Below the pieces are notes generated by a model. It was not told where the DNA came from and did no database searches. It was given only the letters and a program-made list of their open reading frames with translations. The translations under genes were made by a program, and so were the position numbers. Shown one piece after another: positions 3,405-44,247 of a DNA stretch of 64,000 nt; within the stretch, counting starts at the first letter, position 1; every line of letters starts with the position of its first letter. The stretch comes from Parcubacteria group bacterium (GTDB lineage Bacteria; Patescibacteriota; Minisyncoccia; UBA10092): the NCBI GenBank assembly GCA_016186325.1, contig JACPLW010000001.1:187-64186 (forward strand). The letters run 5' to 3'.

Positions 3405-4067
3405 ATGAAAAAAATCAGAAAATCGTCTGGCGATGAAAGTGGTAATGGAGAGACGGGCAGGTTGAGTTTTCATAAAAGTTCGCGCTATATTTCTATTTCC
3501 GGAGAAATCGACCAGAAATTGGCCGACGAATTTTTTAATACTCTGATTGGTTTTGAGTCGCTTAAGTCAAGAAAACCCCTTACCATTTACATTAATAGCG
3601 AGGGCGGTGATGTTGACGATATGTTTAAAATTTATGACCATATCAAAAATTCTCCGCTTTTTATTACAACCGTTGTTGCCGGATGCGCGTTATCGGCCGG
3701 ATTTATAATATTTCTGGCAGGCGATTTGAGAAAAGCGTTCCCGCATGCCCTTTTTGGTTTTCATGCGCCGACAATTTATTATTCACGTGATTACAGCGAA
3801 GGACCGGTTGAAGCAGCGGAATTGGCTTTTTACCAAAAACAGATGTTTGAAACCATGGTGAAAATTGTTAAAGATAATTCAAATATGTCGGAAAAAGCGA
3901 TCAGGAAATATTTCCGCGTTTTAACCAGAATTGATGCTAAAACTGCTTTAAAATTCGGTTTGGCGCATCAGGTTGTCAATCCGCCGAAAAAGATTTTGCC
4001 CAAATCCTGGCCCGCTTCGCCAAAGCTCCAGCGAGGCGAGCAGAAAATTTTAAAACCCCGCCCTTAA
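3405..4067 (+). CDS. clpP: ClpP-family ATP-dependent protease proteolytic subunit (with terminal extensions)
   Basis: Carries ClpP core motifs LTIYINSEGGDV, GCALSAGFIIF (catalytic Ser context) and FGFHAP (His). The start is taken at the internal ATG at 3405, because the track ORF starts at 3306 inside the upstream gene. Confidence 0.6.
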   Translation: MKKIRKSSGDESGNGETGRLSFHKSSRYISISGEIDQKLADEFFNTLIGFESLKSRKPLTIYINSEGGDVDDMFKIYDHIKNSPLFITTVVAGCALSAGFIIFLAGDLRKAFPHALFGFHAPTIYYSRDYSEGPVEAAELAFYQKQMFETMVKIVKDNSNMSEKAIRKYFRVLTRIDAKTALKFGLAHQVVNPPKKILPKSWPASPKLQRGEQKILKPRP

Positions 4068-4174
4068 GCTTAAGGGCGGGGTAAAAGAGCCTAAATAAGC
4101 TCTTTTATTTTATATAAGTGTTAATGCTGAAAAATAAAAAATCGCTGGATAAATCCAGTCGATTGTTCGTATTC

Positions 4175-7687: not shown

Positions 7688-7715
7688 CCCCGCCCTTTGA
7701 GCTCAAAGGGCGGGG
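7688..7715 (+). terminator. intrinsic terminator after rpsP
   Basis: Hairpin CCCCGCCCTTTGAGCTCAAAGGGCGGGG. Confidence 0.5.
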
Positions 7716-17969: not shown

Positions 17970-18623
17970 ATGAACACGCTTGTTTCTGATTTAATTAAAC
18001 AGGGCATTTTGAAAACTCCGCGGATTATTGAGGCATTTAAAAAAATCAACCGCGCTGATTTTGTGCCGCCGGAGTTAAAAGAACGGGCGTACGTTAATGA
18101 ACCATTGCCAATAGGGGAAGGGCAGACCATATCACAACCTTTAACCGTTGCTTTTATGTTGGAACTTTTACAGCCGGAGCCGGGAAATAAAATTTTTGAA
18201 ATCGGTTTTGGGTCAGGATGGCAAACAGCATTATTAGCGGAAATAGTTGGAATAAAAGGACGAATATTCGCAGTTGAAAGAATCCCAGAACTTTTTAGAT
18301 TCGGCAGGAAAAATATTGCTAAATACGGTTTTATTAAAAACGGCACGGTGAAAATGATTGGCGGCGACGCGATCTTAGGATTAAAACGCCACGCGCCGTT
18401 TGATAAAGTAATCGCCGCGGCATCGGGCAAGGAAGTGCCAGAGACATGGCTGAAAGAATTAAGAATCAACGGTCGGTTAGTTGCTCCGATTAAAGAAAGC
18501 ATTTGGCTTTACGTAAAAAAATCTTCACCCGCCAAAATTTCCAAAGGAAACTTAGGCGGGCAAGAAGAATTTGAAAAAAAAGAATACCCCGGCTTTATTT
18601 TTGTTCCTCTTATCAAAACTTGA
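17970..18623 (+). CDS. pcm: protein-L-isoaspartate O-methyltransferase
   Basis: GQTISQP motif and the EIGFGSGW SAM-binding motif. Confidence 0.8.
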   Translation: MNTLVSDLIKQGILKTPRIIEAFKKINRADFVPPELKERAYVNEPLPIGEGQTISQPLTVAFMLELLQPEPGNKIFEIGFGSGWQTALLAEIVGIKGRIFAVERIPELFRFGRKNIAKYGFIKNGTVKMIGGDAILGLKRHAPFDKVIAAASGKEVPETWLKELRINGRLVAPIKESIWLYVKKSSPAKISKGNLGGQEEFEKKEYPGFIFVPLIKT

Positions 18624-28286: not shown

Positions 28287-29333
28287 ATGCCCGCACAAGT
28301 CGTTGTTGTTCCCGGGAGATTGCCGGAAGGCAGAGTCGATCCTCTTTATGGATATGTGGTGGTTATATCAGCGGCGCGAGCGCTTCGAGAAAGCAAAATA
28401 GATCCAGAGTCTACTCATCCGCCTATTCTTCCGGACTATGATGAAAATTGCGGTTTTTGTCCTCGTAACGAAGATAAAACGCCCCCGGAACTCGTTTCTT
28501 TTAGGCGCGATCCGTTTGATATTACATCGTGGGGTACTCGCGGTTTTACCAATCTTTATCCTATTTTAGCGCTTGAAGCCGAAGGACCGGCGCAAGGCGT
28601 TAACGAAATTGTTGTTGAAACCATGCGCCATAATGGTTTTCTTTCTTCCGTTTCCATTGAGGAACTTTCAGAAGCGTTTAGAGCCATTACGATCCGATAT
28701 TTTTCTTTAAGAAACGATCCACGATTAGAATGGTTTTCGGCTTTTAAAAATTATGGGAAACTCGCCGGAGCTTCCATGGAACATCCTCATTTTCAAATGG
28801 CAGTTGAAGCTTGTATCCCCCCTAAATTTAGGGAGCGGTTAAACCGGGCGCAAGATTATTTTTATGACAGCAGGCAGTATCTTTGCTGCGATTACATCGA
28901 AAAACAGAGGAAATTAGGTCAAGTAATTTTTGAAACCGAACATTTTGTAGTATTAGTCCCGTATGCGGCGAGAGTCCCTTATCATTTTAGAATCTTTCCT
29001 GTTAAACACAATCCCTCTTTTGCTCATGTGCTTCGCGACAGCGACCGGGTAAAAAAAGATTTTGCTGAAACACTCCATCGAACAACTTTTCTTTTTAAAG
29101 TCGCGGTCCAGGGAGGGGATTTCCGGCAATATGCCGATCCGCTTTATAATTTCTATATTGAAACCGCGCCATATCGTGACGACCATAAGGAGGGCATCTT
29201 GCATTGGCATGTTGAATTTCGTGGCAAGACCACGATAGAGGCGGGATATGAATACCATACGGGTAAATTTGTGAATCCAACTTATCCGGAAGAAATTGCC
29301 GAACAACTTAGAGGTATTGCGGCAAGGTTTTAA
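28287..29333 (+). CDS. galactose-1-phosphate uridylyltransferase-like (GalT/HIT superfamily)
   Basis: CGFCPRNE zinc motif and the EHPHFQM (HxHxQ) active-site motif. Confidence 0.5.
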   Translation: MPAQVVVVPGRLPEGRVDPLYGYVVVISAARALRESKIDPESTHPPILPDYDENCGFCPRNEDKTPPELVSFRRDPFDITSWGTRGFTNLYPILALEAEGPAQGVNEIVVETMRHNGFLSSVSIEELSEAFRAITIRYFSLRNDPRLEWFSAFKNYGKLAGASMEHPHFQMAVEACIPPKFRERLNRAQDYFYDSRQYLCCDYIEKQRKLGQVIFETEHFVVLVPYAARVPYHFRIFPVKHNPSFAHVLRDSDRVKKDFAETLHRTTFLFKVAVQGGDFRQYADPLYNFYIETAPYRDDHKEGILHWHVEFRGKTTIEAGYEYHTGKFVNPTYPEEIAEQLRGIAARF

Positions 29334-29494
29334 AAATTACGCCCCGTAGCTGCGGGGCGTTTTAATTTTTTATGTCATATTGTTAAACGGCTTTTAAACA
29401 GAGTATAATATAAGGAAATACCAAATGTCGTATTAGTCGAGCCGCTATCGTCTAATGGCTTAGGACGTCGCGTTCTTTCACCCGCCAAAATTTT

Positions 29495-29566
29495 GGCCCC
29501 ATCGTCTAGTGGTCAGGACGCGGCGTTCTCAACGCTAAAACACGGGTTCGACTCCCGTTGGGGCTA
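29495..29566 (+). tRNA. tRNA-Glu (anticodon CTC)
   Basis: Acceptor GGCCCCA/TGGGGCT, D arm GTCTAGTGGTCAGGAC, anticodon loop TTCTCAA, T arm ACGGG-TTCGACT-CCCGT. One C-A mismatch at 27-43. Confidence 0.7.
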
Positions 29567-29632
29567 TTAAGAAAATTTAGGCGGGCAAGACGCTAAAACC
29601 TGGGTTCGATTCCCCGTAGCGGTACAAACCCT

Positions 29633-30466
29633 ATGCTTTCTCATAATTTAAATTTAAAAATTTTTATACAAGAATCGGTTGCTTTTCTGTCGGTAGGAAC
29701 TATTAGTATTTTTTTGGCCGGACGATTTTACGAGTTAAAAACCGTAATGGAAGCGCCAACACAAGTTGTAGAGTGGTGGCAATTTATTCTGGCCTTTGGC
29801 ATCGGAACCGCTATTGTTCTTGGGCTTATCCGTATTTCCCACGGCGGCCTATTTTTACGGATTTTTTTTCTTTTCGCGTTGTTTGCCGGAGTTTTTATAA
29901 CTTTCGGAGCTTTCACTTCGCAAACCTTTGCCTTTATTCTTTCTCTTATTTTAATTTTTTCTTACGTTCTCTGGCCATACGTTTGGCTTCACGATTTGGT
30001 TCTTATTCTCACTTTGTCCGGTATCGCCGCTTTAATTGGCGCATCGCTTAATCCTTGGACGGTGGCGCTACTTTTGATAGTTATGTCTATTTATGATTAT
30101 GTAGCGGTTTATAAAACAAAACATATGGTGAAAATGGCTAAAGCCATGATTGCCGGAAGAGCAATTTTTGCAATGGTTTTTCCAGAGAAAGTTGAAGATT
30201 TTACAGAACATATTGATAGGGCCCACCCTGGCGAAGGCTTTATGATGCTTGGAACCGGCGATTTTGTTTTCCCGATAGTAATGGCTGCTTCGGCGTTTGC
30301 TTTGAGCCCTTTGGCACCATGGCTGGTACTGGGGTTTTCCTTACTGGGACTTTTAATTATGCATCTTATATTCTTTTCTCAAAAAATCCGCCGGCCGATG
30401 CCGGCTTTGCCGCCGCTTGCCGCTTTTTCAATCATCGGTTTTATAATCGCAGTTTTGGTTAAATAA
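29633..30466 (+). CDS. presenilin/signal-peptide-peptidase-like intramembrane aspartyl protease (A22 family)
   Basis: Polytopic membrane protein with YD (SIYDYVAV), GxGD (LGTGDFVFP) and PAL (RPMPALPP) motifs in the canonical order. Confidence 0.6.
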   Translation: MLSHNLNLKIFIQESVAFLSVGTISIFLAGRFYELKTVMEAPTQVVEWWQFILAFGIGTAIVLGLIRISHGGLFLRIFFLFALFAGVFITFGAFTSQTFAFILSLILIFSYVLWPYVWLHDLVLILTLSGIAALIGASLNPWTVALLLIVMSIYDYVAVYKTKHMVKMAKAMIAGRAIFAMVFPEKVEDFTEHIDRAHPGEGFMMLGTGDFVFPIVMAASAFALSPLAPWLVLGFSLLGLLIMHLIFFSQKIRRPMPALPPLAAFSIIGFIIAVLVK

Positions 30467-43452: not shown

Positions 43453-44247
43453 ATGTCTTTTCTTGAAGAACTAAAAATATTCATAAAAAATATTTTTTAT
43501 TGGATTCTGTCCTTTATCGGTTTTTCTTTTTTCTTTTTCGCTTTTGGTTTAAAAAAAGCGGCGATTTTCGGGCAAAATTATTTTCTGCCGCTGCCGACCG
43601 AAAATTCTTTTTCCGCGCAAGTTTTTAAAAAAATCAGGCACGATCTTCTTCCGCCGGACGTTGCTCTTATCGCCACCAATCCAATGAGCGCTTTTATATC
43701 CCAGATAACGCTTTCTCTGTTATTAGGTTTTTTGGTAACCGTTCCCTTTTTTCTTTATAAAATTATTATGTATCTCCGGCCCGCCCTTCTTTTTCGCGAA
43801 AGAAGGGCGGTAATGTTGTCTTTGCTGCCTTTTGTTTTTTTATTTTTTTCCGGTTCCGCGTTCGCTTATTTTTTTCTGATCCCGACCACCTTTAAAACGC
43901 TTTATCCGTACACCGCGGCTATCGGCGCGATTCCATTTTTTTCAATAAACGAATTTATGTATTATGTTTTCGGCCTTACTATTGCCACCGGGACTATGTT
44001 TTTACTGCCACTATTTATGGTCTTATTGAGCATTTTAGGGATTATACCGGCTTGGGTATGGAAAAAAAATTGGCGATACGCTAACTTTCTTTTTCTGGTT
44101 TTGGCCGCCATAATCACTCCGGATGGGACGGGAATCACTATGATTTTACTTTTCATTCCTTTGTCGTTCTTGTACTTTATAGGGTCTTTTTTTGCTGTTA
44201 AACTTAGTAATAGACATGCGACTATAAAAAAGGTCGAAAATTTGTAA
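43453..44247 (+). CDS. tatC: twin-arginine translocase subunit TatC
   Basis: Six-transmembrane topology with an MSFLEELKIF N-terminus, adjacent to tatA. Confidence 0.55.
   Translation: MSFLEELKIFIKNIFYWILSFIGFSFFFFAFGLKKAAIFGQNYFLPLPTENSFSAQVFKKIRHDLLPPDVALIATNPMSAFISQITLSLLLGFLVTVPFFLYKIIMYLRPALLFRERRAVMLSLLPFVFLFFSGSAFAYFFLIPTTFKTLYPYTAAIGAIPFFSINEFMYYVFGLTIATGTMFLLPLFMVLLSILGIIPAWVWKKNWRYANFLFLVLAAIITPDGTGITMILLFIPLSFLYFIGSFFAVKLSNRHATIKKVENL

Follow-up and report, generated by a model that had tools for sequence, protein, structure and literature searches.

A 64,000-nucleotide (64-kb) stretch of DNA from a Parcubacteria group bacterium (contig JACPLW010000001.1; here called the window) contains a 184-nt locus, positions 29441 to 29624, in which a complete tRNA-Glu(CTC) gene lies inside the anticodon loop of another tRNA-Glu(CTC) gene and is bracketed there by the two arms of an inverted repeat. 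We call this arrangement a nest. Our favored explanation, held at a probability of roughly 0.55, is that the nest is a gene-replacement cassette, that is, a palindromic repeat with tRNA-Glu as its cargo lodged in the anticodon loop of the resident tRNA-Glu gene.

The interrupted tRNA-Glu(CTC) gene

An earlier note on this DNA had described tRNA-half look-alikes with complementary acceptor strands around a tRNA-Glu(CTC), and the sequence is as it described. Two forms of tRNA-Glu(CTC) gene are distinguished here by their acceptor stems: GCCGCTA/TAGCGGT in allele B and GGCCCCA/TGGGGCT in allele A. The parts of the nest are as follows:

29441 to 29476, plus strand: outer 5′ part, positions 1 to 35 of the resident tRNA-Glu(CTC), allele B
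29477 to 29480, plus strand: TTCA junction motif, outer 5′ part to left arm
29481 to 29494, plus strand: left arm CCCGCCAAAATTTT, 5′ strand of the helix (repeat I2)
29495 to 29566, plus strand: inner tRNA-Glu(CTC), allele A (Rfam RF00005, ARAGORN)
29567 to 29571, plus strand: TTAAG spacer, inner tRNA 3′ end to right arm
29572 to 29585, plus strand: right arm AAAATTTAGGCGGG, 3′ strand of the helix (repeat I2)
29586 to 29590, plus strand: CAAGA junction motif, right arm to outer 3′ part
29591 to 29624, plus strand: outer 3′ part, positions 39 to 73 of resident allele B

The insert is therefore 114 nt long (29477 to 29590), 72 nt of which are tRNA. The outer 5′ part comprises the acceptor strand GCCGCTA, the D arm, the anticodon-stem strand TCGCG, and the first four loop nucleotides, TTCT; the outer 3′ part comprises the anticodon-stem strand CGCTA, the variable loop AAAC, the T arm, the acceptor strand TAGCGGT, and the discriminator A. 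The outer acceptor strands (29441 to 29447 and 29617 to 29623) form 7 of 7 pairs and the outer D stem, GTCT/GGAC, forms 4 of 4. The outer T hairpin, CTGGG/CCCCG, is present but has one stem mismatch (U·C), and the anticodon stem, TCGCG/CGCTA, also has one (C·U). The outer 3′ part is a mosaic of two allele B types, and the 5′ and 3′ strands of the outer copy come from different ones.

Orthologous loci were located by using the conserved neighboring gene for a presenilin/signal peptide peptidase (SPP)-family protease as an anchor. A plain allele B lies directly before the SPP gene in five related loci (L001, L003, L004, L211, and L212), which share the acceptor stem and the 3′ flank CAAA..TATGCTTTCTCATAATTTAAA with the outer halves in the window. 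A plain allele A matching the inner tRNA is present before the protease gene in L214 and behind the GalT promoter in L210. With these genes all aligned, the outer 5′ part is identical to the plain B of L212 except at position 26, and differences between the inner tRNA and the plain A of L214 are confined to the D loop. A reciprocal nest occurs in L002, in which an intact B lies within a badly damaged A that has a hairpin in its D arm, lacks positions 23 to 35, and carries a 55-nt insert in its T loop; the motif TTAAGAAA, homologous to the TTAAG spacer, follows the inner tRNA there. We conclude from the aligned loci that one locus exists in the alternative alleles, or xenologues, A and B, that the outer halves are the resident tRNA-Glu(CTC) gene (allele B) interrupted after anticodon-loop position 35, and that the window holds both alleles, with A in the anticodon loop of B.

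The earlier note had offered as possible origins a tRNA gene split by insertion of another tRNA and a degenerate tandem duplicate. The five plain B loci, with the same acceptor stem, 3′ flank, and site, support the former; the order of the parts (5′ half, whole tRNA, and 3′ half) and the relatives with a single gene at this place refute the latter. The comparison with orthologous tRNA-Glu loci that it proposed thus returned single genes in relatives rather than a tandem pair with lost pairing, and in nested loci of other lineages the long-range pairing is kept with compensatory changes.

Such a locus could arise if an assembler misjoined strain alleles A and B. Both alleles do occur in related populations, and three of the four independent Logan contigs that include the upstream gene, among the matches listed, stop at window position 29460. 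In L216, an independent Logan assembly, however, the same 184 nt recur without a difference between GalT and SPP, and 800 nt of flank are identical as well; thus, the nest is not an artifact of one metagenome-assembled genome (MAG). Moreover, the roughly 70 comparable nests were assembled with many programs in many studies, and what forms the junctions is a specific repeat element rather than sequence of either allele. We consider a misjoin extremely improbable. L217, L218, and L219 are independent Logan contigs that end at the same base, 29460, inside the outer 5′ half. Breakage at the nest could reflect either the internal repeat or alleles mixed in the population; assemblies tend to break at such nests, and the nest explains contig ends inside the outer half.

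Rfam and ARAGORN (the latter run over the whole window) agree on a single tRNA-Glu(CTC), at 29494/29495 to 29566/29567. The inner tRNA matches RF00005 with 59 bits (gathering score, 29; E = 2.4e-12) over model positions 1 to 71 and forms a full cloverleaf. ARAGORN in intron mode (0 to 200 nt; 29381 to 29680), as the earlier note had proposed, left the outer tRNA uncalled and reported the inner gene alone, and the outer halves had no RF00005 match at E ≤ 10 in an Rfam scan of 29300 to 29750. ARAGORN called an outer tRNA solely after in silico deletion of the insert; the anticodon then varied with the cut (Lys, Leu, or Pyl), and no cut gave Glu in a 7-nt loop. Other Rfam matches in the scanned region (mascRNA, 16 bits; tmRNA_permuted, 13 bits; Phe_leader, 24 bits) were weak and were attributed to chance.

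The two arms, CCCGCCAAAATTTT and AAAATTTAGGCGGG, are 93% complementary. The helix of 14 bp that had been proposed from them exists, but it has 13 pairs plus an A·A mismatch (29487/29579), and it abuts the tRNA-Glu at the 5′ end but not at the 3′ end, where the 5-nt TTAAG (29567 to 29571) intervenes. When folded as the earlier note had suggested, the 184-nt region gave −71.4 kcal/mol (z = −3.95), and none of 200 shuffled sequences was as stable. In the minimum free energy (MFE) structure of the 184-nt RNA, the long helix forms together with the outer acceptor stem and, for the inner tRNA, the acceptor, D, anticodon, and T stems.

A stable helix could indicate that the nest is an evolved processing or regulatory scaffold. 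The arm helix would then be an RNase III-type site, a possibility that the earlier note had also raised, or a folding clamp for maturation of tRNA-Glu, stacked on the inner acceptor stem and on the extended outer anticodon stem, and the outer parts would have been co-opted as leader and trailer. Consistent with a scaffold, the helix is not only stable but covarying; related loci have a conserved leader fold before tRNA-Glu, with a similar leader before tRNA-Gln; and the tRNA is predicted to be cotranscribed with the downstream SPP and L21 genes, no terminator being present between them. Close relatives, however, mature the same tRNA without a scaffold: in relatives with a plain tRNA-Glu, the flanks are not complementary and no such stem exists, and thus the stem is unnecessary for maturing tRNA-Glu. 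Moreover, a 13-bp helix is short for RNase III, the outer stems in the window are degenerating, and the arms are identical to selfish insertions inside open reading frames (ORFs), described below. We regard a scaffold as quite unlikely.

The dispersed palindromic repeat

The window has the 13-mer CCCGCCAAAATTT at exactly three positions, 18528, 24910, and 29481, each time with an inverted partner downstream; by our own arithmetic, an exact 13-mer is expected about 0.002 times by chance in 64 kb. The three copies of the resulting palindrome (18528 to 18560, 24910 to 24941, and 29481 to 29585) have left arms identical over 13 nt and right arms that agree at 12 or 13 of 13 positions. Two are solo copies, with right arms at 18548 to 18560 and 24929 to 24941 and loops of 6 to 7 nt, versus a loop of 77 nt (the inner tRNA plus TTAAG) in the tRNA copy. 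Both solo copies lie inside protein-coding genes:

17970 to 18623, plus strand: PCMT (protein-isoaspartate methyltransferase) gene, with the palindrome near the C terminus and in frame
18524 to 18565, plus strand: solo copy TTCA-CCCGCCAAAATTT-CCAAAGG-AAACTTAGGCGGG-CAAGA inside the PCMT gene, encoding the 12 residues SPAKISKGNLGG
24659 to 25918, plus strand: ddl (D-Ala-D-Ala ligase) gene, with the insertion in the N-terminal domain, adding NPPKFWRKFRRV
24906 to 24941, plus strand: solo copy TTAA-CCCGCCAAAATTT-TGGAGG-AAATTTAGGCGGG, a 36-nt in-frame insertion in ddl

The ddl insertion is clean, 36 nt or 12 codons, and is missing from a 93%-identical orthologue (L215:6482-7648). The 12-amino-acid insertion in PCMT is present in 9 of 19 aligned homologues and absent from 8, and the other 2 have a different insertion at the same site. 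Thus, both solo copies add exactly 12 codons, within or at the edge of Pfam-recognized domains. At the third site, the tRNA-Glu locus is plain in L001, L003, L004, L211, L212, and L214, a further presence/absence polymorphism. We conclude from these comparisons that the palindromic element is mobile or recombinogenic selfish DNA with polymorphic in-frame copies in two protein genes.

The junctions recur as well. Besides the window nest, the solo copy at 18524 and four other nests (L144, L172, L174, and L163) have TTCA before the left arm, and CAAG(A) follows the right arm in the same four nests and in the solo copy at 18561. The copies in PCMT and in the tRNA gene thus share TTCA...CAAGA, and TAA...TAA with one extra T borders the copy in ddl.

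We propose that transposition or short-homology recombination would bring an arm-tRNA-arm cassette into a resident gene. Loss of a tRNA-Glu gene to such an insertion would be survivable, as the cassette would supply its own replacement; solo copies within ORFs would persist only if in frame. A single transcript would start from the promoter at 29380 to 29409. Pairing of the arms would separate the inner tRNA from the near-identical outer halves, leaving it free to fold, after which RNase P would cut at 29494/29495 and a 3′ nuclease would trim after 29566 to give a working tRNA-Glu(CTC). The outer halves would decay, as in L002, L054, L055, and the outer layer of L144. Across the population, alleles A and B would turn over at one locus, with nested forms as intermediates.

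Two other origins of the arms were rejected. A reading of the solo hairpin as a tyrosine recombinase site (lox/dif-like, 13-7-13) fails in that the nest does not have two full sites. Derivation of the left arm from the 3′ end of an upstream tRNA-Asp, prompted by a resemblance to CCCGCCA in L069, is unsupported by other nests. Solo arm copies of the other nests were absent from their own loci, which are short.

We note other insertions and palindromes in and around these genes. PCMT homologues have further in-frame insertions of 10 to 33 amino acids at several sites. Relative to L215, ddl has a second insertion at about 25550 to 25573 of the window (24 nt; 8 amino acids, KPFDSAQG; AAACCCTTCGACTCGGCTCAGGGT) that is weakly palindromic. 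Further GC-rich perfect or near-perfect palindromes of the CCCGCC(C)/GGGCGGG type lie at 4057 to 4080, 7689 to 7714, 22412 to 22470, 25947 to 25968, and 43780 to 43811, and the one at 25947, CCCGCACCTGTACAGGTGCGGG, resembles the arms of the L054 and L127 nests. Judged from their sequences, these palindromes may be terminators or further members of palindromic families.

Nests in other bacteria and alternative accounts

Species-representative genomes were searched for pairs of tRNA-Glu 5′ ends separated by less than about 80 nt. The scan returned mostly chance matches in high-GC genomes and at least seven real cases, all in low-GC MAGs; six of the seven are labeled Candidate Phyla Radiation (CPR)/Patescibacteria (Moranbacteria, Woesebacteria, Saccharibacteria, and others) and one Rickettsiales (L069). 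A tighter pattern returned 81 metagenome stretches, in about 70 of which, mostly low in GC and CPR-like, an intact tRNA-Glu is accompanied by a 5′ fragment or enclosed by both halves. Eight of the 81 (GC, 59 to 70%) are ordinary tight Glu-CTC/Glu-TTC tandems or otherwise have no nested tRNA, and true tight tandem pairs (L134, L142, L169, and others) look unlike the nest. A scan of viral contigs returned no nested tRNA-Glu loci.

The nests fall into several forms. Type (i) has the junction found in the window (stem, YTYT, TTCA, arm ... arm, CAAG(A), stem) and occurs in the distant loci L144/L170, L172, L174, L163/L171, and L159, with a variant form in L127; its arms are homologous yet covarying, either CCCGCC[A/T]AAATTT or CCCC-YCAC-N-AATTTGGAT. 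In type (ii), the insert lies at 34/35 or 35/36 and its removal restores the Glu loop (L131, L146, L187, L153, L150, L158, and L177). Other loci have inserts in the D arm with TCCCGATT...AATCGGGA ends (L132 and L194) or terminal fragments only (L055, L190, and L196). Every interrupted copy found encloses or directly precedes an intact tRNA-Glu, as the search pattern required.

The outer copies form a decay series, from outer copies identical to the inner one (L144 and L132) to diverged (L131 and L127), partly deleted (L002 and L054), and reduced to terminal fragments (L055 and L190). Outer copies are plainly broken in L002, L054, L055, L163, and the outer layer of L144. With 19 of 21 stem pairs, the outer copy in the window is the lowest of 13 two-halved nests, the other 12 having 20 to 21 of 21, and no choice of a 7-nt junction yields a Glu anticodon loop from it. 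Because two of its stem pairs are broken and no excision restores a Glu loop, we read the outer halves in the window as a probably inactivated shell around an inner tRNA that would be the working gene.

L144:5725-6075 contains a three-layer "Russian doll" nest. Its outermost layer is the 5′ half of a GGCCCC-type tRNA-Glu that is broken by several hairpins and followed by the arm TTCA-CCTGCCTAAAATTTT; its second layer is identical to the innermost tRNA-Glu(TTC); and the intact gene is innermost. The sequence of the layers suggests successive rounds of one type of event.

Units of a 5′ fragment plus an arm are amplified in tandem in L170, L132, L104, L138, and L206, and tRNA-Gln and tRNA-Lys genes in these loci have similar 5′ fragments with hairpins. 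On the reverse strand of L206 (about 430 to 680), at least three tandem units precede a tRNA-Lys; the unit consists of that tRNA's own positions 1 to 22, the hairpin TCCGCCAACTGGCGGA, and an anticodon-loop region, the same phenomenon in another isotype. We also note an identical 20-nt palindrome, CCTGCCTGCCGGCAGGCAGG, in the D arm of the dead outer tRNA of L002 (1800 to 1819) and in L204 (632 to 651), where it has an unrelated, terminator-like context in a different lineage.

A "leader" class has a 14-nt 5′ fragment followed by hairpins, 60 to 77 nt upstream of tRNA-Glu (L055, L135, L139, L143, L145, L155, L161, L167, L176, L180, L197, L203, L206, L208, and L186). The leader fold consists of GGCCCCATCGTCTAC, a variable hairpin, G.TATACGAT, a second hairpin, and TGCCAA; no variation occurs in the flanking stems, and each pair of the first hairpin has 4 to 7 two-sided compensatory changes. 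An analogous leader before tRNA-Gln consists of TGCGGGATCGTCTG, a hairpin, ...GACATGGTAGG, and a hairpin. Judging by its covariation, the conserved leader may be an undescribed RNA motif.

The commonest neighbor of the nests is a small ORF (about 63 to 103 amino acids) with a GIY-YIG domain, which lies directly beside a tRNA-Glu nest in 19 loci, downstream in L131, L173, L201, L055, L183, L198, L135, L143, L145, L204, L153, L158, L167, L176, and L197 and upstream in L187, L200, L165, and L206. Three representatives matched Pfam PF01541 with E values of 7e-14 to 1e-21. No GIY-YIG gene was found within the 64-kb window. A large serine recombinase gene (Resolvase + Recombinase + Zn_ribbon_recom) adjoins the nest in 9 loci: L055, where it lies at 541 to 2158 on the minus strand relative to the nest, and L130, L168, L176, L183, L186, L198, L200, and L208. 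The position of these genes suggests that integrative elements use the tRNA-Glu locus, and by gene content the locus appears to be a hotspot for mobile DNA in these bacteria.

Several observations weigh against the cassette. No consistent target-site duplication could be defined across the three copies of the repeat; no transposase, recombinase, or homing endonuclease was found among the eight neighboring genes tested; and no cassette was found outside a tRNA gene, such that the mobility of the tRNA-carrying form is something we infer. The inner tRNA of nests in other lineages is like the local tRNA and not like a cargo common to all (outer and inner are alike in L144 and L172), and the cargo model thus needs an extra assumption, for example, gene conversion or donors belonging to the same population. 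The same junction motif (TTCA ... CAAGA) and insertion position in distant lineages may reflect common descent of a maintained structure. RNAalifold analysis of six type (i) nests gave a double cloverleaf in which 27 of the 61 pairs show compensatory changes; the five pairs that make up the split outer anticodon stem are all among them. Between L131 and L146, outer and inner copies have diverged to a similar degree and by structure-preserving changes only, and the 33 nt of the arms are identical. The near-perfect outer stems of the other nests thus look like selection rather than decay. Finally, in the leader class each 14-nt fragment follows, across lineages, the acceptor sequence of the tRNA to which it belongs and lies within a conserved fold, neither of which is expected of plain junk.

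One way in which outer stems could be conserved is if the nest is a two-in-one precursor, in which a non-self-splicing tRNA intron hosts a second tRNA, both tRNAs are functional, and the arrangement is maintained in CPR/Patescibacteria. RNase P and a 3′ endonuclease would free the inner tRNA, and the arm helix would hold the outer halves together until the outer tRNA was trimmed and ligated by a putative enzyme, unless it worked as a two-piece molecule. The degenerate copy in the window would be a member recently stripped of function. The stems paired at 20 to 21 of 21 in 12 of 13 two-halved nests, the covarying double cloverleaf, and the similar change of outer and inner copies around invariant arms in L131 and L146 all favor a precursor of this kind. 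So does the exact 7-nt Glu loop obtained on removal of the insert from the type (ii) nests L131, L146, L187, L150, L158, and L177 and from L200, likewise of type (ii).

The same excision, however, fails to give a canonical 7-nt Glu anticodon loop in the window and in five other type (i) nests tested, and the outer copy in the window has its two broken pairs. Nor was an intron of a recognized type detected. The bulge-helix-bulge (BHB) motif of 3-4-3 form is absent from the MFE fold and from all registers inspected by hand; the MFE junction is a continuous rod with a 3×1 internal loop (UCA opposite C), and type (ii) relatives, as read from their sequences, have a 4-nt bulge plus a 1-nt bulge with a handedness opposite to that of BHB. 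A group I intron was rejected on the basis that the insert is 114 nt, mostly tRNA, and has no detectable core, and no Intron_gpI or ribozyme family matched at E ≤ 10 in the Rfam scan of 29300 to 29750. No splicing endonuclease (EndA) or ligase was present among the eight neighboring genes tested. Moreover, outer copies are often truncated or laden with hairpins (L002, L054, L055, L163, and the outer layer of L144), outer and inner tRNAs usually share an anticodon and so would bring a small genome no gain, and close relatives live with one plain gene. Insertion into an intact local gene yields complementary outer stems automatically, and thus the pairing data are no proof of function. On balance, we think a two-in-one precursor unlikely.

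Three further candidates were discarded. A permuted or split tRNA gene does not fit the order of 5′ half, insert, and 3′ half on one strand within 184 nt. An integrase attachment-site fragment does not fit two halves that flank just 114 nt, with no integrase among the neighboring genes. A spliced outer copy with a 6-bp stem and a UCA anticodon (Sec/opal-like) fits L172 but fails for the window and L144.

The nest could also be a scar of break repair, left by template switching or by short-homology recombination with a second allele from a related strain, with no unit moving. Fragile palindromes and highly transcribed tRNA genes would invite breaks, and duplications with inverted junctions would result. 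Consistent with repair, the outer copy in the window is a mosaic of two allele B types, A and B are alternative alleles at one locus, and no transposase was found among the eight neighboring genes. Elsewhere, the left arm of L144 runs into an inverted copy of the 3′ end of the inner tRNA (22-bp pairing), L190 and L202 contain an inverted partial T arm, units of 5′ fragment plus arm are in tandem in the five loci given above, and GIY-YIG nucleases adjoin many loci; SegB, a GIY-YIG enzyme, has been linked to segmental amplification in a tRNA gene region (PMC13096335). Random repair, however, would not be expected to reproduce the junction motif, insertion position, and homologous arms that recur in distant lineages, and the arms are a defined repeat family with clean 36-nt insertions elsewhere. 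A repair scar therefore seems to us rather doubtful, and we continue to favor the gene-replacement cassette.

Comparison with known systems and genomic context

Rickettsia palindromic elements (RPEs), reportedly described by Ogata et al. in 2000, are short palindromes of about 100 to 150 nt that survive inside ORFs when in frame. [quoted passage not shown] Its solo form, in contrast, is about 36 nt, and its tRNA copy carries a complete tRNA gene in the loop, within the anticodon loop of a gene of the same isotype. We know of no RPE or MITE with a whole tRNA in its loop inside a same-isotype tRNA gene. MITE- and REP-like palindromic repeats of prokaryotes have been reviewed (PMC10969869 and PMC3733652).

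As in elements that integrate into tRNA genes, the insertion in the window supplies a replacement and leaves partial tRNA copies beside an intact gene, and serine recombinase genes adjoin several loci related to the window nest. Such integrative elements reportedly target and restore tRNA genes, leaving tRNA fragments at attL and attR (Williams, 2002). Integrases, however, leave one direct-repeat fragment at the far side of a multikilobase element, whereas the window has both old halves around 114 nt, a whole-tRNA replacement, inverted-repeat junctions, and no nearby integrase. Fragments of tRNA genes have been attributed to integrated elements or CRISPR (PMC9897764).

The halves of archaeal split tRNAs, like those in the window, have a GC-rich complementary strand of about 14 nt that is able to unite them, and it is to the complementary leaders of Nanoarchaeum split tRNAs that the arm helix would be likened if the nest were a two-in-one precursor. 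Disrupted and split tRNA genes were reportedly described in archaea by Marck and Grosjean (2003) and Randau et al. (2005). Archaeal disrupted genes also resemble the nests in having insertions in the anticodon loop or D arm, with insert sequences that look mobile. The nest differs in being bacterial, with halves joined in cis through a whole tRNA and without BHB, and, unlike that of archaeal introns, excision in the window is unable to restore a 7-nt loop. Archaeal disrupted tRNA genes, BHB introns, and split and tri-split tRNAs have been treated elsewhere (PMC10714607 and PMC4390854).

Group I introns resemble the nest in that each interrupts a bacterial tRNA gene in the anticodon loop, and type (ii) relatives have their insert between 34 and 35, the same place as the tRNA-Leu group I intron. 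Bacterial group I introns occupy tRNA anticodon loops, for example, that of tRNA-Leu(UAA) in cyanobacteria and others, and their core, P1 to P9, takes about 200 nt or more. The insert in the window, in contrast, is 114 nt, mostly tRNA, and has no core. Free-standing homing endonuclease cassettes carry a substitute for the displaced part of a gene, and T4 SegB lies in a phage tRNA cluster. These cassettes are similar to the nest in that a region of an essential gene is invaded without loss of function, and GIY-YIG genes lie beside many related nests. They differ in that no endonuclease gene lies in or near the window nest, and the adjacent GIY-YIG ORFs elsewhere are predicted catalytic domains of only about 90 amino acids. 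Both the cassettes and SegB are covered in the literature (PMC2988022 and PMC13096335). By analogy, the nest would work most like selfish palindromes of the RPE/MITE type combined with the "bring your own replacement" logic of tRNA-targeting elements and some homing cassettes.

The searchable literature held no description of tRNA genes nested in tRNA genes, of tRNA introns, or of RPE-like elements in CPR bacteria, and the nested tRNA-Glu arrangement appears to be undescribed. If the nest is a gene-replacement cassette, then ultrasmall bacteria carry Rickettsia-type selfish palindromes, one form of which invades an essential tRNA gene by means of a spare copy. Turnover of tRNA genes would then have a new mechanism, and the tRNA "fragments" that confuse annotation would have a new source. 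If instead the nest is a two-in-one precursor, then Bacteria would have a protein-dependent tRNA intron or split-tRNA system, which would bear directly on where tRNA halves and introns came from, a subject of long-standing debate. In either case, about 70 loci are available for testing by tRNA sequencing.

The window has a GC content of about 39 to 40%, indicative of a low-GC bacterium, and the host is a tiny groundwater bacterium. The nearest database proteins to the genes of the window are labeled Parcubacteria group or "Candidatus Azambacteria," that is, CPR/Patescibacteria. Among the eight neighboring genes, which were tested against Pfam, are those for GalT, a hydrolase, a Mur ligase, SPP, L21, RecR, and DnaB. 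The features that immediately flank the nest are as follows:

28287 to 29333, upstream of the nest: GalT-like gene (Pfam match, GalP_UDP_transf)
29339 to 29360, plus strand: terminator-like hairpin closing the GalT-like gene (9-bp stem, then a T-rich tail)
29380 to 29409, plus strand: sigma-70-like promoter TTGTTA-18-TATAAT (10 of 12 consensus matches)
29633 to 30466, plus strand: presenilin/SPP-family protease gene, beginning 8 nt past the outer 3′ end

The site at 29380 to 29409 is the only promoter-like one upstream of the nest, and thus outer and inner parts should share one transcript. A promoter region homologous to it precedes the tRNA in L002, L210, and L212. The GalT-like gene, the terminator, and the tRNA promoter are present together in the window, L002, L210, and probably L212. 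All three are absent from L001, L003, L211, and L214, in which the tRNA follows a divergent hydrolase gene. This block is thus itself a presence/absence polymorphism that adjoins the tRNA locus.

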